Of a stretch of DNA of 48,645 nucleotides, positions 15,828 to 48,645 are shown piece by piece. Under the pieces are notes generated by a model. It saw nothing but the letters and a program-made list of their open reading frames with translations, searched no databases and had not been told where the DNA came from. Where the stretch lies: positions 1,936 through 50,580 of the forward strand of contig MFUU01000010.1 of assembly GCA_001785805.1 (NCBI GenBank). The letters are read 5' to 3'. The translations under genes were made by a program, and so were the position numbers. Numbering within the stretch: the stretch's first letter is position 1; the number at the start of each line of letters is the position of its first letter. This DNA comes from Candidatus Nomurabacteria bacterium RIFCSPLOWO2_01_FULL_39_17. GTDB lineage: Bacteria > Patescibacteriota > Minisyncoccia > Phycocordibacterales > UBA9973.

Positions 15828-15891
15828 CAGAATTTACTTTTTCGAACGGTCTGGGGATTTTTTCCGAGGACCTGAGAAAAAGAAAATTCTG
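15828..15891 (+). repeat. Nested-hairpin interspersed element, family 1, short-form copy A
   Basis: CAGAATTTACTTTTTC-GAACGGTCTGGGGATTTTTTCCGAGGACCTGA-GAAAAAGAAAATTCTG. Lies in the spacer before glyA. Confidence 0.85.
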
Positions 15892-21300: not shown

Positions 21301-21314
21301 AAATAAAGATTTTA

Positions 21315-21323
21315 TGTTAAAAT
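21315..21323 (+). promoter_or_regulatory. Extended -10 box TGTTAAAAT, 8 nt upstream of ATG 21332 (ileS)
   Basis: TGn plus TAAAAT. It overlaps the alternative upstream ATG at 21314. Confidence 0.35.
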
Positions 21324-21331
21324 CAGTCATA

Positions 21332-24300
21332 ATGACTGAAAAAGAAGAAAATACTAAATCCGATATGGTGCTTCGGGAGGAGCGAGTTTTGGAATTCTGG
21401 CAAAAAAATAAAATTTTTGATAAATCTTTAAAACAAACTGAGGGAGGTAAAGAATTTATTTTTTACGAAGGTCCGCCAACTGCCAACGGTAAACCGGGCA
21501 TTCACCACTTGGAAGCGCGGGCTTTTAAGGATGCAATTCCGAGGTATAAGACAATGCAGGGTTATCATGTCCGCCGAAAGGGCGGATGGGACACGCATGG
21601 ACTCCCCGTTGAACTGCAAGTAGAGAAAAAGTTGGGGTTAAATTCAAAAAAAGCGATTGAGGAATATGGTATTGCCAGGTTTAACCAAAAATGCCAAGAA
21701 AGCGTCTGGGAATATTTGAATATGTGGGAAAAATTTACCGAGCGCATCGGTTTCTGGCTTGATCAGGAGAATCCATATGTGACTTATCATAACAATTTTA
21801 TTGAATCTGTCTGGAATGTAGTAAAAAAAGTTGATAAGCAGGGGCTTCTCTATAAAGATTATAAAGTTGTGCCATGGTGCCCGAGGTGCGGAACAGTGCT
21901 TTCTTCGCATGAACTTGCACTAGGATATGAGGATGTAAAAGATTTGTCGATATATGCGAAATTCAAAATTCGCTCCGTCGGTGAAAAATTTTCTCAGGTC
22001 CTCGGAAAAAATCCCCAGACCGTTCGAAAATCTTCCCCCGACTCCGCTTTACCATTGTACTTTCTTGCATGGACCACTACACCGTGGACTCTGCCTGGCA
22101 ATGTCGCTCTGGCAGTGGGAGAGAAAATTATTTATGTAAAAGTGAAATTGAATAATGAAATATTTATTCTGGCGAAAGAACGAATTTCTATATTGCCAGA
22201 ACCTTATGAAATTCTGGAAGAAATACATGGACAGGATTTGATTGGTTTGGAATACGAACCGCTTTTCCCATATCTTGCCGAGATTATTCCCGAGAACGAA
22301 AAATCAAAGTTAGAAAAAGCATACAAGGTTTACGGGGCAGACTTCGTGACTACTATTGATGGTACAGGCATAGTGCACACGGCTGTGATGTATGGGCAGG
22401 ATGACTTTGAACTTGGCACCAAAGTTGGCTTGCCGAAGCATCACCTCGTTAATTCCGAAGGTAAATTTATCAAAGGGACGGGACTCCTGGAAGGTCGGTT
22501 TGTAAAAGAAAAAGATAACAACAATAAACCGACACTTGATGTAGACATCATTAAATATCTGACCGATAAAAATTTATTCTTCAAAAAAGAAAATTATGAG
22601 CACTCATATCCGCACTGCTGGCGCTGTAAAACAGCGCTTATCTACTATGCGCGAGATTCTTGGTATTTTAAAATGTCCGACCAAAAGATAAAAGAAAAAT
22701 TAATTGCCGAGAATAAAAAAATAAACTGGGAGCCTTCGCACATCGGGGAAGGGCGTTTCGGCGAATGGCTGAGGGAAGTAAAAGATTGGGCAATCTCCCG
22801 CGAGCGGTACTGGGGCACGCCATTGCCGGTCTGGGAGTGCAGTAAGTGTAACAAGAAACATGTAATTGGAAGCTTGGAAGAATTAAAAAAGAAAACAAAA
22901 AAGTCCGGCAACAAGTATTTCGTAATGCGCCACGGCGAAGCGGGTAATAATATTAAAAATGGCATTCATCATAGAGATTTGGAATATAGCGCCAAATTAA
23001 CAGAAAAAGGGAAAAAACAAGTATTAGAGAGTTTAAGGAATTTTAAAGAGAGAGTAGATATCATTATTTCTTCTACATTTGAAAGAGCAAAGGAAACCAC
23101 TGAAATAGTTTGTGGACAAATTAATTTTCCGTTAGGAAAAGTTATTTATAACCAACAAATTAAAGAACAAGAAACTAGTTCGTTTTTTGACGGCAAGGAT
23201 AAAGCAGTTTTTGATGAATATTATGATGGAGGTTATTTACTGGATAATCCAAATGAAATTTTACCAGATAGTGAAAGTTTTGCTCAGGTAATTAAAAGAA
23301 TTGGGCAATTTATTTATGATTTAGAAACGAACTATTCTAATAAAAATATTTTAATTATTGGTCATGGGAATGCGACTAATGCTTTGAGTTTTATAGTAAA
23401 AGGATTATCATTAAATAATTTATCAAGTAAAAATAATCCATTTATTTCTCTTAAAAATGCCGAAATCAGGGGATTTGATTTTATCCCACTTCCGCATAAT
23501 GAAAACTTTGAACTTGATTTACACCGGCCCTATATTGATGAAATTAATCTTGTCTGCGAATGCGGAAGCAAGCTGACGCGCACGAAAGAAGTAATGGATG
23601 TTTGGCTTGATTCTGGCACGATGCCGTTCGCGCAGGACCATTATCCATTTGAGAATAAAGATTGGGTAGAAGGAAAAGGTTATCCGGCAGATTATATTTC
23701 CGAAGCGATTGATCAGACTCGCGGGTGGTTTTATACGTTACACGCCGTTGGCGTCCTGATGGGTCGCGGGAGAGCATTTAAGAATGTTATTTGTCTCGGA
23801 CATTTACTTGATGCCACTGGCAAGAAAATGTCGAAATCTCTGGGAAATATAGTTAATCCGTGGGTGATGATAGAAAAATACGGAGCAGATACACTTCGTT
23901 TATGGATGTATTCTGTCAATCAGCCCGGAGAGTCTAAGAACTTCGACGAAAAGACAGTTGCTCTGCTTTCCCAGCAAGTTTTTGGACTGCTTTATAACGT
24001 GCTCGCATTTTATGAACTTTACCGCGATAGGGTGCTGGAAAAGAACAACCGACCCAAAATATCTAAAAATGTTTTAGATATTTGGATTCTTGCCAAACTT
24101 GATGAGTTGATAGGACTTTCAACTAAAAATTTAGACAATTATAAATTGCTTGAACCAGTAAGAGGCATGAAAGACTTTATCGGCGACCTTTCAACTTGGT
24201 ACTTGCGCCGTTCGCGAGAGAGAATAAAAGAAGGGGACGTGGAAGCAAAACAAACTTTATACTTTGTATTAAAAACTCTTACGAAATTATTAGCCCCATT

Positions 24301-24913
24301 TGCTCCACTTTCTGCGGAAGATATTTGGCTACGATTGAAAAACGACAAAGATACCGAAAGTGTGCATCTAGTAGAGTGGCCAAAAATGTCAAAGAGACTC
24401 TTTGACATTTTTGGCAGTGGAGAAGATGAAATTTTAAAGAATATGCAAACGGTGCGTGACATTTGTACTGCGGGTAAAGCAGAAAGACAGAGGTTAAATA
24501 TTCCTATTCGCCAGCCCCTAAATAGATTAGATATGCCACAAGGGTTACCCATTGAATATGTTGAGATTATAAAAAGTGAGTTAAATGTAAAAAGTCTAAA
24601 TTATACACTAAAAGCGGAGACAGGTATTTATAAAATAGGGTTTGATTCAGAAATTACCCCGGGATTAAAACAAGAAGGGAATTATCGCGAACTTGTTCGC
24701 GCCCTGCAAGATATGAGGAAGAAAATGGAGCTTACACCGAGCGATGTCATAGCCATAGCTTTCGAAACGAACGATATGGGTAAAGCTCTAATTGGAAAAT
24801 TTGAAGCTGATATAAAGAAAACCGTACTTGTGTCCAAAATAGAGTTTAAAGCAAATGACGGTCAAGAAATCAAAATAGACGAATTGGTATTTAAGGTAAA
24901 AATTGATAAATAA
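21332..24913 (+). CDS. ileS: Isoleucine--tRNA ligase with two insertions (repeat-derived ~18 aa, and a ~208-aa histidine-phosphatase domain)
   Basis: PPTANGKPGIHH (HIGH region), [27 protein letters not shown]-terminal anticodon-binding region. An alternative start at ATG 21314 would add 6 aa. Confidence 0.9.
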   Translation: MTEKEENTKSDMVLREERVLEFWQKNKIFDKSLKQTEGGKEFIFYEGPPTANGKPGIHHLEARAFKDAIPRYKTMQGYHVRRKGGWDTHGLPVELQVEKKLGLNSKKAIEEYGIARFNQKCQESVWEYLNMWEKFTERIGFWLDQENPYVTYHNNFIESVWNVVKKVDKQGLLYKDYKVVPWCPRCGTVLSSHELALGYEDVKDLSIYAKFKIRSVGEKFSQVLGKNPQTVRKSSPDSALPLYFLAWTTTPWTLPGNVALAVGEKIIYVKVKLNNEIFILAKERISILPEPYEILEEIHGQDLIGLEYEPLFPYLAEIIPENEKSKLEKAYKVYGADFVTTIDGTGIVHTAVMYGQDDFELGTKVGLPKHHLVNSEGKFIKGTGLLEGRFVKEKDNNNKPTLDVDIIKYLTDKNLFFKKENYEHSYPHCWRCKTALIYYARDSWYFKMSDQKIKEKLIAENKKINWEPSHIGEGRFGEWLREVKDWAISRERYWGTPLPVWECSKCNKKHVIGSLEELKKKTKKSGNKYFVMRHGEAGNNIKNGIHHRDLEYSAKLTEKGKKQVLESLRNFKERVDIIISSTFERAKETTEIVCGQINFPLGKVIYNQQIKEQETSSFFDGKDKAVFDEYYDGGYLLDNPNEILPDSESFAQVIKRIGQFIYDLETNYSNKNILIIGHGNATNALSFIVKGLSLNNLSSKNNPFISLKNAEIRGFDFIPLPHNENFELDLHRPYIDEINLVCECGSKLTRTKEVMDVWLDSGTMPFAQDHYPFENKDWVEGKGYPADYISEAIDQTRGWFYTLHAVGVLMGRGRAFKNVICLGHLLDATGKKMSKSLGNIVNPWVMIEKYGADTLRLWMYSVNQPGESKNFDEKTVALLSQQVFGLLYNVLAFYELYRDRVLEKNNRPKISKNVLDIWILAKLDELIGLSTKNLDNYKLLEPVRGMKDFIGDLSTWYLRRSRERIKEGDVEAKQTLYFVLKTLTKLLAPFAPLSAEDIWLRLKNDKDTESVHLVEWPKMSKRLFDIFGSGEDEILKNMQTVRDICTAGKAERQRLNIPIRQPLNRLDMPQGLPIEYVEIIKSELNVKSLNYTLKAETGIYKIGFDSEITPGLKQEGNYRELVRALQDMRKKMELTPSDVIAIAFETNDMGKALIGKFEADIKKTVLVSKIEFKANDGQEIKIDELVFKVKIDK
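21983..22035 (-). repeat. Family 1 nested-hairpin element, copy F, in frame inside ileS
   Basis: Contains TTCTCAGGTCCTCGGAAAAAATCCCCAGACCGTTCGAAAA, 40/40 identical to the reverse complement of copy A. Translated as [18 protein letters not shown]. Confidence 0.85.
22886..23509 (+). other. Histidine-phosphatase (phosphoglycerate-mutase-like) domain inserted within IleRS
   Basis: KYFVMRHGEAGNN (RHG motif, His codon 22931-22933), ISSTFERAKETT, ILIIGHGNATNAL (second His codon 23363-23365). Bounded by WECSKC (22838-22849) and VCEC (23555-23563). Confidence 0.75.
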
Positions 24914-36575: not shown

Positions 36576-36641
36576 GCGGGAAATACTTTTTATAAGGTCC
36601 TCGGAAAAAATCCCCAGACCATTCTAAAAAGTATTTCCCGC
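36576..36641 (-). repeat. Family 1 nested-hairpin element, short-form copy C
   Basis: Perfect 17-bp arms GCGGGAAATACTTTTTA / TAAAAAGTATTTCCCGC around TAAGGTCCTCGGAAAAAATCCCCAGACCATTC. Lies 9 nt upstream of the recA ATG and contains the stop codon of the upstream ORF. Confidence 0.88.
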
Positions 36642-36997: not shown

Positions 36998-37063
36998 GCA
37001 GGAATTACTTTTACGAATGGTCTGGGGATTTTTTCCGAGGATCTGAGAAAAAGAAATTCCTGC
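36998..37063 (+). repeat. Family 1 nested-hairpin element, short-form copy B
   Basis: GCAGGAATTACTTTTAC-GAATGGTCTGGGGATTTTTTCCGAGGATCTGA-GAAAAAGAAATTCCTGC. Lies between the ftsK stop and the next gene start. Confidence 0.88.
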
Positions 37064-37070
37064 GAAAAAA

Positions 37071-39296
37071 TTATATTATATTATCACCATTTTCGTCGCG
37101 CATTATTTTTTCTAATACTTCTCTCGGCTTGGCGCCGTCCCCGGGTCCTATCACTCCGCGCTCTTCCAATTTATCCATCAGCCTGGCCGCCCGCGCATAC
37201 CCCAACTTTAATTTTCTCTGCAAATATGAAGTTGAAGCTTTGCCTGCTTCTACTACGCACATCCTTGCTTCCTCATACATTTCATCGTCGTCAGCACCTT
37301 CATCTTCGAGCGTGCTTTCGAAAATACTTTTTTCTGCCGAAATACTTCCGGAAGTTATAGAAATTTCTTCCGACACTTCGTCTCTATACGTATCTGCCAG
37401 ATATTTGACAACTTTCTTTACTTCACTCTCCGAAATAAAAGCGGATTGCAGTCGTTCCGGCTGGGCATCTCCCGAAGAATAGAGCATATCGCCGGCACCC
37501 AACAACTTCTCTGCTCCGCCCGTGTCAAGGATTGTGCGTGAATCAACTTGTGAAGAAACTTTCAACGCAATGCGGGCAGGAATGTTGGCTTTAATCAAAC
37601 CGGTGATAACATTTACTTCCGGACGCTGGGTTGAGAGAATAAGATGTATGCCCACCGCTCTGGACATTTGCGCCAGCCGCACGATGGCGGATTCAAGCTC
37701 TCTCGGGTAAGTGCTCATTATATCTGCCAATTCGTCTATTATGATAATAATATATGGCAGGCGGTCGGCATTTTCCACCATCTCGCCCGCGCCATTAGCT
37801 TTGGTTTTCTTCGGGTCTTTGTTGAAGACATTGTTATGATAAGACTCTATATCTCTCACGGATTCTGCTTCCAATATGTCATAGCGTCGGTCCATTTCTT
37901 TGGCTGCCCATTTAAGCGCTAATATAGTTTTCTTTGCTTCGGTTATAACGGGGGTAAGCAAGTGGGGGATATTCTTATAAAGAGTAAGTTCTACGCGTTT
38001 CGGGTCTATCATTATCAATTTTAAGTCGTCCGGGCCATTTTTATATAAAAGGGAAGTGATTATAGAGTGTATCGTGACTGATTTTCCAGAACCGGTTGCT
38101 CCAGCCACTAGGCAATGTGGCATTTTTACCAGAGTGTCAAACATCGCCTTGCCGGAAATAGCGCGGCCCAGCGCTATGGTAAGGGGTTTTGAAGCATTTT
38201 TGAATTTATCATCCGCGAGGAGGGTAGCAAGCCCGACCAGCGATTTTGTTCTATTGGGAATCTCGATACCGACTAATGATTTTCCGGGAATCGGAGCCTC
38301 TATTCTTATCGGATGGGCAGCCAGAGCAAGCGCCAAATCATTTTGCAGTCCGACTATCCTTGAGAGCTTCATTCCTTCGGCCGGTTTTAGGGCATAACGA
38401 GTGACCGTGGGGCCAATGGTTATTTCATCCATCTCAACTTCAATGCCGAAGTTGGCAAGTGTGCGTTTGATAATATTTGCGTTAGCCTTGATGTCGCCGG
38501 TGTTTGGTTTGCCCCTGTCTTCTTCAAGTAACGAAAGCGGAGGGGGAACATAATTAGGCGTTAGGCCATAGGCTTTAGGCTTTAGCTTTTTAAATTCAAT
38601 TTCTTCCATTGCCTCGCCATAGCTTTCAGCGTCGGCGGGTTCATCTTTACTTTTCTTTTTTCCGACACCCAATGCACTTTTGATTTTTTCTTTTGTGGTT
38701 AACTCCTCTTCTTCTGACATAGATTTTTCAACTTCCTCTATCTCATCTTCATTTAAGGTTAAAACCGGTTCTTCTTTCCTCTTTCTTTTTATTAATGACC
38801 AAATTTTAGCAAAAATCGGCGTGAATATCGGTCTAGCATCGAACATTACAAGAATTGAAATTATTAAAAGCGCGCCCAAAAGAACGATACTTGCATAACT
38901 ATCAAAAAGAAATATGAATGGGGTAGATAAAACCCTCCCCAAGAATCCGCCCGAGTGTTCGCCCGAAGCGACATCAATAATACCGAGAGAAGAAAGAAGG
39001 AAAATTACAGAACTTATGGTTCGCGTCCATCCGATATTTGGAGTTTCCGATTTTAAAAACGAAGATCCGAGCAGCATAAAGAGAGAGGGAAGCAGTATAT
39101 ATCCGACACCCAGTAAATAGTGCAGGTTTTCATAAAAGAATTTTCCAGCTACTCCCGCCACGTTAAATGCAGACATCAAAAAAAATAATGCTAAAACGAA
39201 AAACACAATCGCTAAAATACTGTGCTTAGTTTCAGTTTTTAACTTATTAGTTGGAAAATTATTTTTAGAATATCTTTGTCTGTCTTTTTTTGCCAT
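37071..39296 (-). CDS. ftsK: DNA translocase FtsK/SpoIIIE
   Basis: 741 aa. N-terminal TM segments, acidic/basic linker, Walker A GATGSGKS, IIIDELAD, C-terminal gamma wHTH SYLQRKLKLGYARAARLMD. Confidence 0.92.
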   Translation of the reverse strand: MAKKDRQRYSKNNFPTNKLKTETKHSILAIVFFVLALFFLMSAFNVAGVAGKFFYENLHYLLGVGYILLPSLFMLLGSSFLKSETPNIGWTRTISSVIFLLSSLGIIDVASGEHSGGFLGRVLSTPFIFLFDSYASIVLLGALLIISILVMFDARPIFTPIFAKIWSLIKRKRKEEPVLTLNEDEIEEVEKSMSEEEELTTKEKIKSALGVGKKKSKDEPADAESYGEAMEEIEFKKLKPKAYGLTPNYVPPPLSLLEEDRGKPNTGDIKANANIIKRTLANFGIEVEMDEITIGPTVTRYALKPAEGMKLSRIVGLQNDLALALAAHPIRIEAPIPGKSLVGIEIPNRTKSLVGLATLLADDKFKNASKPLTIALGRAISGKAMFDTLVKMPHCLVAGATGSGKSVTIHSIITSLLYKNGPDDLKLIMIDPKRVELTLYKNIPHLLTPVITEAKKTILALKWAAKEMDRRYDILEAESVRDIESYHNNVFNKDPKKTKANGAGEMVENADRLPYIIIIIDELADIMSTYPRELESAIVRLAQMSRAVGIHLILSTQRPEVNVITGLIKANIPARIALKVSSQVDSRTILDTGGAEKLLGAGDMLYSSGDAQPERLQSAFISESEVKKVVKYLADTYRDEVSEEISITSGSISAEKSIFESTLEDEGADDDEMYEEARMCVVEAGKASTSYLQRKLKLGYARAARLMDKLEERGVIGPGDGAKPREVLEKIMRDENGDNII

Positions 39297-39632: not shown

Positions 39633-40418
39633 ATGTTTGGAGATCAAAAAGACACACAGAAAAATCTCAAAGACTCCGAAAATAAGTCCGTAACACCCTA
39701 CGGAGCTAGCTCTCAAGGCATGCCTTTTATGTTGTCTTATACGAAGACAAATAAGCTTATTACAGCGCTTTATATGGTAACGGACATAATAGACAAAGAA
39801 GAACCATTGAGGAATAAATTAAGGACATTAGGAACTGGGATTATATCAGACATCAATACCGCGCCAATCAACATTTGCAGTAAGATATCTGAAATAATGT
39901 CCTTTTTAGATATTGCCGGAGCGGTTAATATCATATCTTCAATGAATTGCAATATTTTAAGAAAAGAGTTTATGGAACTGGATCAATCTATAAGAGAGTC
40001 TACTAATACAGTTGGGAGCATAAGTAAACAAATAAATCTTTCGGAATTTTTCACAGGAGAACTTTCTCCCAAGCTAGATAGAAAACAATCCAAATCTATT
40101 GGACATAAGAATTCAGCAAGACTTGGTGTCCAAAAGGGCGGTACTTTAATGCAAGCTCTGTCCGATACGACTTTAAACAGTCCAAACACAGTTGCCCCTA
40201 ACGTTTTTAAAAAGGAAAGACGTGAAGAAATAATTAAAATTATTAAAAATAGTTCAAATGGGACTACTATAACGGACATTAAAACCCAAGCGAGCGGGCC
40301 CCTTGTTTCTTGTAGTGAGAAAACTCTTCAAAGAGAGTTGATTTCTATGGTAAAAGACAATGTCCTTTATAAAACAGGAAAGAAACGCTGGAGTCGATAT
40401 TTTTTAGCTAGGCCTTAG
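39633..40418 (+). CDS. Putative transcriptional regulator with a C-terminal winged-helix domain
   Basis: 261 aa. The C-terminal TITDIKTQASGPLVSCSEKTLQRELISMVKDNVLYKTGKKRWSRYFL resembles a wHTH. The N-terminal helical region LITALYMVTDII...EPLRNKLR is of unknown family. Confidence 0.5.
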   Translation: MFGDQKDTQKNLKDSENKSVTPYGASSQGMPFMLSYTKTNKLITALYMVTDIIDKEEPLRNKLRTLGTGIISDINTAPINICSKISEIMSFLDIAGAVNIISSMNCNILRKEFMELDQSIRESTNTVGSISKQINLSEFFTGELSPKLDRKQSKSIGHKNSARLGVQKGGTLMQALSDTTLNSPNTVAPNVFKKERREEIIKIIKNSSNGTTITDIKTQASGPLVSCSEKTLQRELISMVKDNVLYKTGKKRWSRYFLARP

Positions 40419-40428
40419 CCACTAGGCG

Positions 40429-40472
40429 TTAGGCTTTAGTTTTTTGCATTAAGCTAGTTGCCTAAAGCCTAA
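40429..40472 (+). terminator. Hairpin after the regulator gene (11-bp perfect stem, 22-nt loop); possible terminator
   Basis: TTAGGCTTTAG ... CTAAAGCCTAA. There is no clear U-tract after the stem, so terminator function is uncertain. Confidence 0.3.
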
Positions 40473-45110: not shown

Positions 45111-45156
45111 TTCTAAGTTAATCTAAATTTTGTAGAGGTCGAATACTACAAACTTC

Positions 45157-45186
45157 AAAAAACACCCCTTCAGGGGTGTTTTTTGT
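45157..45186 (+). terminator. Rho-independent terminator
   Basis: AAAAAACACCCC-TTCA-GGGGTGTTTTTTG: GC stem, 4-nt loop, T-run. Lies 47 nt after the stop codon. Confidence 0.85.
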
Positions 45187-45214: not shown

Positions 45215-45256
45215 CCCCACCAACAAGACTAGCAAGGACAGTCCTTGCTAGTGGGG
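45215..45256. repeat. Left flanking palindrome of the RAYT gene
   Basis: CCCCAC(caacaaga)CTAGCAAGGAC-A-GTCCTTGCTAGTGGGG. The left arm carries an 8-nt bulge. Confidence 0.8.
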
Positions 45257-45267
45257 AGGGATAGGAT

Positions 45268-45273
45268 TATAAT
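45268..45273 (+). promoter_or_regulatory. -10 box TATAAT, 6 nt upstream of ATG 45280
   Basis: Perfect hexamer. No Shine-Dalgarno. Confidence 0.3.
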
Positions 45274-45279
45274 TAAATA

Positions 45280-45951
45280 ATGCAAAGAAAAGATCCTTTT
45301 ATTCCTGGAGAGTATTATCATATTTACAATCGCGGTATCGATAAACGGATTATTTTTAAATCATTAAATGACTACCGTCGTTTTATGATGCTTTTATATG
45401 TTGCCAACAGTGACGAACCAATCAGGCTTGATAATCTTTTAAATATTCTTAAGAAAAGTTATAAGGAAATTTTGGAATGCGATAAAGGGAAGCCACTTGT
45501 TTCAATAGGCGCGTGGTGTCTTATGGCCAATCATTTTCACATTCTTCTTAAAGAAGAAACAGAAAGTGGAATTTCACAATTTATGAAAAAACTTGGTACT
45601 GGATATTCAATGTTTTTTAATATTAAATATCACCGCACCGGCGGACTTTTTGGTGGACCATTTAAATCAAAACATATTAAAGATGACAATTACCTTAAAC
45701 ATTTATTCGGATATATACACTTAAACCCGCTCGACTTAGAATTTTCTGGTTGGGAAAATTTGATATATAAACAAAATTCAAAGTCATGGAAAAGTTTTCT
45801 TGAAAAATATACATATTCAAGTTATCAAGACTATGTCGGGAAAGAACGTCCGGAAGGGAATATTATTAACAAGCATGTTTTCCCAAAGTATTTTTTGAAA
45901 GTAAAGGACTTTAGTAATTTTATTGATGATTATCTTTCTTTCGATTTATAA
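45280..45951 (+). CDS. REP-associated tyrosine transposase (RAYT) / IS200-like Y1 HUH transposase
   Basis: 223 aa. YHIYNRG N-terminus, HUH motif NHFHILL (45532-45540), catalytic Tyr context GYIHLNPL (Tyr codon 45712-45714). Confidence 0.8.
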   Translation: MQRKDPFIPGEYYHIYNRGIDKRIIFKSLNDYRRFMMLLYVANSDEPIRLDNLLNILKKSYKEILECDKGKPLVSIGAWCLMANHFHILLKEETESGISQFMKKLGTGYSMFFNIKYHRTGGLFGGPFKSKHIKDDNYLKHLFGYIHLNPLDLEFSGWENLIYKQNSKSWKSFLEKYTYSSYQDYVGKERPEGNIINKHVFPKYFLKVKDFSNFIDDYLSFDL

Positions 45952-45983
45952 ACCACTAGCAAGGACTGTCCTTGCTAGTGGTT
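45951..45983. repeat. Right flanking palindrome of the RAYT gene
   Basis: AACCACTAGCAAGGAC-T-GTCCTTGCTAGTGGTT: perfect 16-bp arms, beginning at the last base of the stop codon. Confidence 0.85.
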
Positions 45984-46044
45984 GCTAGTAAAATTCACTA
46001 CGGGGTTTGCGTTTATTGAGACATTCTATATAATAGAAATTGTT

Positions 46045-47169: not shown

Positions 47170-48645
47170 ATGAAAAAAATACAAAAAATATTTTTAATTG
47201 GTTTTCTCACTCTAGCTCTTGTCGTGGGAGTAGGAGTTGGTTCTGCAGGTGCTACGCTCACCCTCGATGCGTTAACCGTTACCAGTAGTGGCGCGCTTAC
47301 CTTGACCGGAGCAGTAGGTTCGGCTATCACAATTGGCGCTGCTGGGCAAACCGGCACAATCAGTGTCGGCGACTCAACTGGCGCTATGACCATGAATTTG
47401 GCCAGTGGCAATAGCATAAAAACGATTAATCTTGGCACCGGAACGGGTGTTAAGACGATTCATATCGGCGATAATGCCACTCCAGCTAACGTTATCACAA
47501 TCGGTGGCGCAGCATCTGGTACGGTTGTAGGTGGAACATTCAAGATTGGAACCTTGAGTTCAACAGTTGCAGGAAGTGGATTGACTATTAATGCCACTAC
47601 TCCTAGAGCAGTGGACATCAATGTTGACGATAATGATGTTGCCACGACAGATACGGCCGTGCTCCTTTCCGCTGGTCGTTTTAGATTAATGAGATATGCT
47701 AACTCTGATTCAGAAGATTATGCAGTTCATGGTTTAGTTAAATATTCAGCGTTGACCAAAAGCCGATTTGGCGCTGGTGTAATGGGAGCGGCAGAAACAA
47801 CTGGCGCAGTTACCGCCTCTAATCTTTTAGCTGGTGTTTTGGGACGATTTGGAACAGCAGCTACGCTTACTTTGACCGGTGCTACTGATCGTGTTGCTGC
47901 CGTAGCTGCCTTCAACAACAATAGTGTTGCTTTAGCTGGTTCTGGAAAATCAGCCGGTTTGTTAGTAATGGAGACCGATGTTGGAACTCCGATTGATCTT
48001 GACTACGGTTTGGAAATCCAGAATAGTGCCGCGACAACAGGTATTCAGGTTGGAACTGCAACAACCGGTATTAATTTGGCCGGAACTTTCACCACAGGTA
48101 TGAGCGTTGCTAATACAGCAACTACTGGAATTAACTTTGCCGGCGGAGCAGCAACCCAGCCTATTCTAGTTGGAGCTTTTAGCTCGACTGTTCCGGGAAG
48201 CGGCGTGATTATTAACGACAGCAATGTAAGAGCGGTTGATGTCCATGTTGACGATAACGACGTTGCCTCGGCAGATACGGCTAAAACTCTCTCTGCCGCT
48301 CGCTTCAGATTGATAAGATATGCTGATTCTGTTGCAGAAGATTACGCGCTTCATGGCTTGGTTAAATATACAGATGGAGTGACCAAGAGCCGATGGGGTG
48401 CTGGTGTCATAGGAGCTGCCGAAATGACGGGCGCAGTTACTTTGTCTAATCTTACAACTGGTGTTTTGGGACGATTTGGAACATCAGCTACGCTTACTTT
48501 GACCGGTGCTACTGATCGTGTTGCTGCCGTAACTGCCTTTAACAACAACGGTGTTGCTTTAGCTGGTTCTGGAAAATCAGCCGGTTTGTTAGTAATGGAG
48601 ACCGATGTTGGAACTCCGATTGATCTTGACTACGGTTTGGAAATC
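47170..48645 (+). CDS. Secreted repeat-containing surface protein, 3' end outside window (absent from the ORF track)
   Basis: My manual translation from ATG 47170 gave 492 codons with no stop up to the window edge. Signal peptide MKKIQKIFLIGFLTLALVVGVGVGSAGA. Gly/Thr/Ala-rich. The five minus-strand track ORFs here are antisense artefacts. Confidence 0.8.
   Translation, partial: MKKIQKIFLIGFLTLALVVGVGVGSAGATLTLDALTVTSSGALTLTGAVGSAITIGAAGQTGTISVGDSTGAMTMNLASGNSIKTINLGTGTGVKTIHIGDNATPANVITIGGAASGTVVGGTFKIGTLSSTVAGSGLTINATTPRAVDINVDDNDVATTDTAVLLSAGRFRLMRYANSDSEDYAVHGLVKYSALTKSRFGAGVMGAAETTGAVTASNLLAGVLGRFGTAATLTLTGATDRVAAVAAFNNNSVALAGSGKSAGLLVMETDVGTPIDLDYGLEIQNSAATTGIQVGTATTGINLAGTFTTGMSVANTATTGINFAGGAATQPILVGAFSSTVPGSGVIINDSNVRAVDVHVDDNDVASADTAKTLSAARFRLIRYADSVAEDYALHGLVKYTDGVTKSRWGAGVIGAAEMTGAVTLSNLTTGVLGRFGTSATLTLTGATDRVAAVTAFNNNGVALAGSGKSAGLLVMETDVGTPIDLDYGLEI
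47554..48645 (+). repeat. Tandem ~209-codon coding repeat (units about 47554-48019 and 48178-48645, period 624-627 nt)
   Basis: The 3' parts, 47833-48019 versus 48460-48645, differ at only 5 positions. The 5' parts are much more diverged. Confidence 0.85.

Follow-up and report, generated by a model that had tools for sequence, protein, structure and literature searches.

A probable REPtron/TIRtron-type locus in Candidatus Nomurabacteria: a single-copy Y1 HUH gene between paired palindromes kept across Patescibacteria

The repetitive extragenic palindromes (REPs) and their REP-associated tyrosine transposases (RAYTs) are the textbook example of a domesticated prokaryotic transposase, and they have been studied almost only in Proteobacteria. 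Here, we analyzed a 48,645-nucleotide stretch of DNA (the window) from Candidatus Nomurabacteria bacterium RIFCSPLOWO2_01_FULL_39_17 (assembly GCA_001785805.1, contig MFUU01000010.1), in which a gene for a 223-amino acid (aa) Y1 HUH protein is bracketed by two copies of a short palindrome. We consider it probable, at roughly 0.75, that this is a locus of the REPtron or terminal inverted repeat (TIR)-based TIRtron type: a domesticated, vertically inherited, single-copy Y1 HUH gene from the RAYT side of the IS200 superfamily, located between its cognate palindromes.

The closest described systems differ in their enzymes and in the repeats that accompany them. In the E. coli REPtron, the RayT protein (also TnpA-REP or YafM; structure 4ER8; subclass 2.2, Bertels Group 2) is encoded by a single-copy, vertically inherited Y1 HUH gene, and its REPs, which number in the hundreds, are imperfect palindromes that contain a bulge and carry GTAG as a 5′ tag. 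The insertion sequences (ISs) IS200 and IS608 of the IS200/IS605 family (TnpA subclass 1.1) encode a Y1 HUH transposase of about 150 aa with a Y---Q motif; they are multi-copy and near-identical, often accompanied by tnpB and non-syntenic between species. According to Quentin et al. 2018, the Y---NP motif marks class 2 (TnpA-REP) and the Y---Q motif marks IS200 (PMC6006769). Within class 2, the subclass 2.1 consensus consists of NHVH or NH[YF]H, YIELNP or Y[IV]HLNP, and W[EQ] or FQ, in a protein of about 238 aa with a conserved-Ser tail; C-terminal helix-turn-helix (HTH)-like domains are frequent, and no REP-like sequences were found near the genes (PMC6006769). Subclass 2.1 equals Group 1 of Bertels et al. 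and probably the TIR-associated tyrosine transposases (TIRYTs) of Di Nocera et al. 2013, who described self-complementary, moderately repeated TIRs at a fixed distance from such genes (PMC3733652).

In the window, the gene is flanked by two copies of ACTAGCAAGGAC-N-GTCCTTGCTAGT, and repeat detection pairs the left and right sites over 27-nt arms at 100% complementarity. The left element is composed of CCCCAC (45215-45220), an 8-nt interruption (CAACAAGA) and CTAGCAAGGAC-A-GTCCTTGCTAG-TGGGG (45229-45256); the interruption is explained by a degenerate tandem copy of the left arm inside the element. The first base of the right palindrome is also the final A of the TAA stop codon (45949-45951). 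When folded as single-stranded DNA (ssDNA), the left site reaches -15.1 kcal/mol (z of -4.9 versus shuffles) and the right site -16.6 kcal/mol (z of -8.1). With up to 1 mismatch, the 11-mer CTAGCAAGGAC has 4 strand hits in the window, compared to 0.46 expected, and none of 100 shuffles reaches 4. The preliminary description of this DNA, made from the sequence alone, had reported both the bracketing of the gene in REPtron-like fashion and the right copy's start at the stop codon, and both are confirmed.

We surveyed the palindromes at 80 metagenome loci of orthologs from Patescibacteria, removing redundancy for the counts; at 74 of the 77 non-redundant loci, a palindrome flanks the gene on each side. 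The loop-proximal core GCAAG[GA]AC-N-GT[CT]CTTGC (at times GCTAGGAC...) is conserved throughout, while the stem foot differs between loci (CTA, TCG, TAA, GCG and others) and is the same on both sides of one gene. The left and right copies agree at a mean of 5.3 of their 6 outer nt, compared to 2.9 +/- 0.17 for shuffled pairings (maximum 3.36 in 1000 shuffles), and the same G/A core variant is present in both flanks at 67 of 73 loci. At the locus numbered L007 in our survey, whose ortholog is 77% identical, the palindrome matches the window's at 24 of 25 positions (the centre base differs), while the surrounding intergenic DNA has diverged. The palindrome pair belongs to the gene, and almost all orthologous loci in Patescibacteria have retained it.

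The preliminary description had also taken the complementary centre bases as a sign of opposite orientation. The A/T pair is present in the window, but such complementarity is not conserved and does not mark orientation: of 69 loci, 38 have identical centre bases on the two sides, 28 have complementary ones and 3 have neither. Comparing the 12-nt flanks in direct and inverted alignment was uninformative for orientation (7.6 versus 7.7). A mirror symmetry of the locus is instead indicated by tandem duplications of the outer arms, found at 58 of 308 isolated non-redundant palindromes (2 in a wrong-arm control), since the left arm is duplicated upstream of the palindrome and the right arm downstream. 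The duplicated units span from about the palindrome centre to just past the foot; they could possibly be cleavage footprints, products of replication slippage or iteron-like sites.

The palindrome also occurs without the gene. We scanned one genome per species (596 Gb, where we estimate that about 0.5 matches would occur by chance; the window's own genome is not among the matches listed) for the 21-mer TAGCAAGGAC-N-GTCCTTGCTA, and found at least 117 stretches in at least 79 Patescibacteria assemblies. Apart from two short, probably mis-binned contigs, the matches listed all lie in metagenome-assembled genomes of Patescibacteria, and a RAYT-like gene is present in about 18 of the stretches. At least 97 of the palindromes are orphans, with no such gene and no stretch end within 1.2 kb, and 88 of these 97 are intergenic by crude open reading frame (ORF) calls. 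The intergenic orphans occur in every gene-orientation context; between co-directional genes, 45 are nearer to the upstream stop codon and 16 are nearer to the downstream start. The most that one assembly contains, among the matches listed, is at least 6 separate 8-kb blocks and at least 9 sites, and the single 693,530-bp contig of RAAC4_OD1_1 has sites at 176, 368 and 688 kb. The palindrome family appears low-copy, close to the 12 occurrences that Bertels et al. reported for the 16-mers flanking Group 1 genes (PMC5581495). Orphans of one genome, for example at L135, L163 and L043, have asymmetric flanks in common, which argues for copying over independent origin.

We also considered whether the orphans are -35 boxes or operators of a regulon and rejected this, as a -10 hexamer at 16-18 nt is found on 4 of 206 sides, equal to the background. 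Separately, some loci contain clusters that resemble bacterial interspersed mosaic elements (as at L155, 5855-6855, and L112, 3847-4780), in which two or three palindrome subfamilies with GGAC and GAAC cores and different feet are arranged symmetrically around a RAYT-like gene.

Could the palindromes be ordinary terminators or structural elements with no connection to the protein, found beside it by chance or shared ancestry? Some orphans are located just after stop codons and are followed by T-runs, and the left palindrome has a weak terminator score on the minus strand. However, the right palindrome has no T-run, and the upstream surface-protein gene possesses its own canonical terminator (45156-45185), so that the left palindrome is not needed for its termination. 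An unrelated element would also not be expected to have the same 17-nt core on both sides of the gene with left/right co-variation far above shuffles, to be replaced by a distinct palindrome beside a paralog, or to be essentially restricted to Patescibacteria at a frequency so far above the chance expectation. We strongly disfavour this explanation and give it next to no weight.

The protein itself carries the signatures of the family. It contains MANHFHILL and FGYIHLNP, and the Pfam Y1_Tnp profile (PF01797) matches residues 57-147 with 28.6 bits, above its gathering cut-off of 23. Among 30 aligned orthologs, H87, Y145 and N149 never vary and H85 is conserved in at least 90%; the N-terminal YYH.YNRG and the C-terminal YSSY are conserved as well, and S180-S181, within a Ser-containing tail, are invariant. 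An hhalign comparison to E. coli RayT pairs NHFH with EHMH and YIHLNP with YIYINP. The AlphaFold model (pLDDT 70, pTM 0.72) has a helical C-terminal third, and its best fold match in the PDB is 4ER8_A, the E. coli TnpA-REP with a REP hairpin (probability 1.00, TM of 0.55 on the target), followed by IS608, ISDra2 and IS200 TnpA structures (2A6M/2A6O, 2VJV and 2XM3). Together with the Y---NP motif and the absence of an adjacent tnpB, these results bear out the preliminary description's reading of the ORF as a Y1 HUH protein of RAYT type, and not an IS200 TnpA.

By its Y---NP motif, the protein is assigned to class 2 (TnpA-REP) and not with IS200. It further appears to fit TnpA-Y1 subclass 2.1 (Bertels Group 1, TIRYT-like) by the published consensus motifs only: NHFH, YIHLNP, the length of 223 aa and S180-S181 agree, and the W/FQ position reads FG in this ortholog group and FQ in a paralog at locus L008. 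No HTH or DnaA_C Pfam match is found in the protein at E <= 1. It has 2563 homologs, the best 120 of which are 61-100% identical and 220-249 aa long; the named hosts among these 120 are Candidatus Nomurabacteria, Paceibacterota or Patescibacteria.

Gene neighbourhoods and substitution rates indicate how the gene is inherited. The identical protein is encoded on 12 assembled contigs, always in the same context. The L007 ortholog has the same neighbours, in the order 264-aa protein, 1364-aa PG_binding_1 protein, gene and 244-aa protein, and the order recA-ftsK-261 aa-surface protein-gene is common to L047, L043 and L065, where the proteins are 60-63% identical. The ratio dN/dS is 0.06-0.11, with saturated synonymous sites (pS 0.70-0.80). 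Such a gene occurs exactly once per locus in 34 long related loci that together span 527 kb, and once in the window; the protein clusters at 90% identity mostly have 1-4 members. The gene appears domesticated: it is single-copy, syntenic and under strong purifying selection, and it does not behave like an IS. A phage or mobile-element origin is likewise unsupported: no relative of the protein is found in 2.9 million viral contigs, where the palindrome core has 2 matches only.

These observations also bear on the possibility that the whole 0.77-kb unit is an autonomous IS200-like insertion sequence whose ends are the subterminal hairpins. Its 769 bp and its layout of hairpin, promoter, tnpA and hairpin do resemble IS200, the stop codon within the right palindrome recalls transposase ORFs that run into IS ends, and Group 1 is the most IS-like RAYT group, with 6.3% duplicates and 1.2% on plasmids (Bertels et al., PMC5581495). 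An autonomous element, however, would not be expected to remain at one copy per locus and in small identity clusters, to be absent from viral contigs, or to retain the same chromosomal neighbourhood at 60-77% protein identity, where dS is saturated. The Y---NP motif, the length of 223 aa and the lack of tnpB also depart from IS200, and at least about 100 palindromes stand without the gene. We regard this explanation as quite improbable.

The left palindrome is positioned to take part in the gene's expression. Its right arm supplies the hexamer TTGCTA, which is followed after 17 nt by TATAAT; the pair matches the promoter consensus at 10 of 12 positions and is the top promoter-like site in the region. 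The upstream consensus of the 80 loci reads GCAAGaAC-c-GTtCTTGC, 17 nt, TTTGaTATAAT, 6 nt, ATG. A -35 box TTGCNN from the right arm, with a spacer of 16-18 nt, is present at 65 of 78 loci, and the core GCAAGRAC-N-GTYCTTGC begins 46-49 nt before the ATG at 65 of 79 non-redundant loci (exactly 48 nt at 48 of them). The -10 hexamer ends exactly 6 nt before the ATG at 71 of 80 loci, with an extended TG at 49 of 80, too close for a Shine-Dalgarno sequence to fit in between. A leaderless transcript is therefore predicted, and from these sequences the whole clade appears to express this gene family from mRNA without a leader. A protein on the left palindrome would cover the -35 box, which suggests autorepression through this site. 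At the other end of the gene, the stop codon often lies within the right palindrome, as with the TAG of cTAGCAAG.

A second enzyme and palindrome pair is found at a related locus. At L008 (2422..3111, minus strand), a RAYT-like paralog of 229 aa, 45% identical over the core and scoring 32.5 bits with Y1_Tnp, adjoins an L007-type gene. Its palindrome is a different one, CCAGATAGGGC-N5-GCCCTATCTGG (L008, 2403-3151), with one copy upstream, two downstream and one in-frame inside its own ORF, where it encodes ..TQIGPEALSG... One enzyme with one palindrome family is the rule described for REPtrons (PMC6006769). This second palindrome is also present in the left intergenic region of L007 (5722-5748) and missing at the aligned site of the window, which is the behaviour of a mobile element. 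In the window, CCAGATAGGGC has 12 hits with up to 2 mismatches, compared to 6.6 expected, and none is palindromic.

A mechanism can be proposed by analogy with TnpA-REP and IS608 TnpA. The protein would bind the palindrome when it is extruded as an ssDNA hairpin, for example on the lagging-strand template, and would nick near the hairpin using Tyr145 and an HUH-bound metal; as these enzymes do, it could also rejoin the strands (PMC8266576). Nicking and rejoining would copy or homogenise the palindromes and could yield the outer-arm duplications, and protein on the left palindrome would repress its own transcription. The conserved bases are loop-proximal and the foot can vary, so the protein probably recognises the hairpin tip, as in IS608, and not a GTAG tag at the foot.

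The principal alternative is that the protein is a dimeric regulator of its own gene that binds double-stranded DNA (dsDNA) and no longer cuts, with the orphans as further operators. A -35 box contributed by the left palindrome, with constant spacing at most loci, would suit such a regulator, and so would the perfect palindrome with a 1-nt centre and a conserved 8-bp half-site, typical of dimer operators; the tandem same-arm copies could be additional half-sites, and the helical C-terminal third of the model recalls the HTH-like domains that subclass 2.1 proteins often have at their C-termini (PMC6006769). Invariance or near-invariance of the HUH motif and Tyr145 under strong purifying selection is, however, unexpected for a pure binder. 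The second palindrome is at the stop codon and not at a promoter, and the orphans lack a -10 hexamer at promoter spacing and are nearer to gene 3′ ends than to starts. Moreover, the paralog's palindrome is found in-frame within an ORF and is present or absent between orthologous intergenic regions, as a mobile sequence would be. Weighing both sides, we consider the regulator-only explanation unlikely, though it is the strongest of the alternatives.

Several results count against a REPtron- or TIRtron-type locus. The broader profile Y1_Tnp is above its cut-off, but the NCBIfam RAYT equivalog NF047646 (REP_Tyr_transpos) scores 35.7 bits, below its cut-off of 80. A profile search of PDB sequences gave no relevant match, and the structural relatives were recovered by the fold search alone, at about 12-15% identity to the solved proteins and with moderate model confidence (pLDDT 70). 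The geometry of the palindromes (perfect, 1-nt centre, no GT[AG]G tag) also suits a dimeric dsDNA binder. Their copy number looks low, with distant orphans at about 1 per 70-90 kb in loci that were chosen for the gene, a count unbiased with respect to the palindrome. As the preliminary description had stated, matches to the 11-mer (up to 1 mismatch) within the 48.6-kb window are confined to the two flanking sites, and there is no direct sign of recent movement of the gene's palindrome family in this genome.

The likeness to the E. coli REPtron extends from the single-copy, vertically inherited gene to its cognate extragenic palindromes, which stand in a mirror arrangement, are also dispersed between genes and are sometimes clustered (here at L155 and L112); RayT is also the best structural match, with the HUH motif and Tyr aligned. 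Unlike the E. coli REPs, the palindromes here are perfect with a 1-nt centre, number from a few to perhaps tens of copies per genome, and are conserved at the loop instead of the foot. The canonical tag GT[AG]G is not seen, as the bases before GCAAG vary (TA, TC, AA, GC, CC and others). The protein is 58 aa longer than RayT and about 12% identical to it in structural alignment. With IS200 and IS608, the locus has in common the Y1 HUH fold, the hairpins on both sides within a unit of about 0.7 kb and, by analogy, the expected recognition of ssDNA hairpins with Tyr-mediated cleavage and rejoining.

The TIRtrons and their TIRYTs are similar in the protein (about 220-240 aa, NH[YF]H, Y[IV]HLNP and a conserved Ser-containing tail after the core), in low copy number, and in inverted repeats at a fixed distance from the coding sequence; their flanking repeats can overlap gene ends and form moderately abundant families in some genomes. 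They differ in that the flanks here are short perfect palindromes and not long TIRs. The TIR motif GGGGWSAS does not stand out in the 80-locus upstream consensus, although no explicit search for it was made, and the distal HTH- or DnaA_C-like domain of many subclass 2.1 members is undetected here by Pfam. In contrast to the reported lack of REP-like sequences around subclass 2.1 genes, palindromes are located at nearly every locus, with a core that is conserved across a class-level clade. The locus works like a REPtron and is, by its protein motifs, closest to the TIRtrons of subclass 2.1. Because the protein is below the RAYT equivalog cut-off, the GT[AG]G tag is absent and the copy number appears low, we call it REPtron-like or TIRtron-like and not a canonical REPtron.

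Loci of this kind were already known, since Di Nocera et al. described self-complementary repeated TIRs at such genes; this member has an unusually clean architecture and clade-wide conservation, in a Patescibacteria host. In full-text literature searches, we found neither RAYT nor REP reported from Patescibacteria or Parcubacteria, and the TIRtron and RAYT papers cited here (PMC3733652, PMC6006769 and PMC5581495) do not name Patescibacteria as a host.

Table 1. Positions of the gene, its promoter elements and the flanking palindromes in the window.
Feature	Position	Strand	Basis
Left palindrome including outer pairing CCCCAC...GTGGGG	45215..45256	.	sequence and repeat detection; ssDNA fold
Degenerate tandem copy of left arm, CCACCAACAAGA, inside left element	45217-45228	.	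L007 has CCACTAGCAAAA at aligned position
Left palindrome perfect core ACTAGCAAGGAC-A-GTCCTTGCTAGT, 12-bp stem	45228..45252	.	repeat detection
-35-like hexamer TTGCTA, made by right arm of left palindrome	45245..45250	+	promoter scoring
-10 hexamer TATAAT, ends 6 nt before ATG	45268..45273	+	promoter scoring and 80-locus consensus
Gene for 223-aa Y1 HUH protein (TnpA-Y1 class 2, subclass 2.1-like, RAYT/TIRYT-type)	45280..45951	+	ORF, profiles, fold
HUH motif codons, H85-F86-H87	45532..45540	+	ortholog alignment; aligns with EHMH of E. coli RayT
Codon of putative catalytic Tyr145, within YIHLNP (145-150)	45712..45714	+	ortholog alignment; aligns with YIYINP of E. coli RayT
Right palindrome AACCACTAGCAAGGAC-T-GTCCTTGCTAGTGGTT, perfect 16-bp stem	45951..45983	.	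repeat detection
Partial tandem copy of right arm, TTGCTAGT, outer side of right palindrome	45982..45989	.	45977-45989 85% identical to arm

The locus (Table 1) lies between the surface-protein gene upstream and a gene for a 240-aa protein without a Pfam match downstream. Farther downstream, tandem repeats of 624-627 nt that are 74-91% identical are located at 47546-48645, within a gene that runs past the window end and encodes a probably surface-exposed protein.

The window also contains other repeats. The preliminary description had called it full of hairpin repeats, which does not hold at stems of at least 9 bp, although a 64-nt family with 4 copies and tandem 7-mers are present. This family, with units of about 64 nt and the core GGTCTGGGGATTTTTTCCGAGGA[CT]C, may be what was termed family 1; it has copies at 15828-15891 and 36999-37062 (plus strand) and at 21989-22030 and 36588-36629 (reverse complement). 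A short inverted repeat of its own surrounds each copy, and one of the copies falls within the ileS ORF. Among the related loci, only L001, from the same organism, has the family. Tandem runs of the 7-nt TAGGCNT are located at 38555-38610 and 40409-40464, one of them within ftsK (minus strand) and the other where the 261-aa ORF ends. The suggestion that the enzyme mobilises or maintains the window's other repeats is unsupported, as the 64-nt family and the TAGGCNT tandems have no sequence in common with the palindrome and are absent from the related loci. A 37-nt perfect palindrome, GCCAAAAATGTCAAAGAG-A-CTCTTTGACATTTTTGGC (24379-24415), and a 27-nt palindrome (24057-24083) both lie within the coding region of an isoleucyl-tRNA synthetase-like protein (IleRS; 1199 aa, 21314-24913, plus strand), which has a histidine phosphatase domain (His_Phos_1, aa 536-705) inserted in its class I synthetase domain. 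Rfam gave no family match anywhere in the window.

Paceibacteria have genomes that are among the smallest in bacteria, streamlined to about 0.7-1 Mb, in ultra-small, host-dependent cells. Tentatively, and with rather less confidence than in the nature of the locus itself, we propose that the system is Paceibacteria-wide and long-kept: a host gene for a subclass 2.1-type Y1 HUH protein that is self-repressed via its palindromic -35 box, together with low-copy perfect palindromes in which the 8-nt half-site did not change although the protein drifted to 60% identity. If true, the Candidate Phyla Radiation would gain its first described REP/RAYT-type system, and there would be first evidence of dispersed cognate hairpins for the 'REP-less' enzymes of Group 1 or subclass 2.1. 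An enzyme like those of the largest RAYT group, which was reported to be palindrome-free, here has a very regular REPtron-like architecture across a class. The short, perfect and conserved pairing of enzyme and site offers a compact model for the recognition of perfect palindromes, and it suggests autoregulation via a palindrome that doubles as the promoter's -35 box. The practical consequence is small, in that annotation should not count these genes as active IS elements. The finding raises the question of why streamlined genomes retain such a system; if the proposal is true, it would point to a host function, such as the processing of ssDNA hairpins or the marking of gene 3′ ends, and not to selfish spread.

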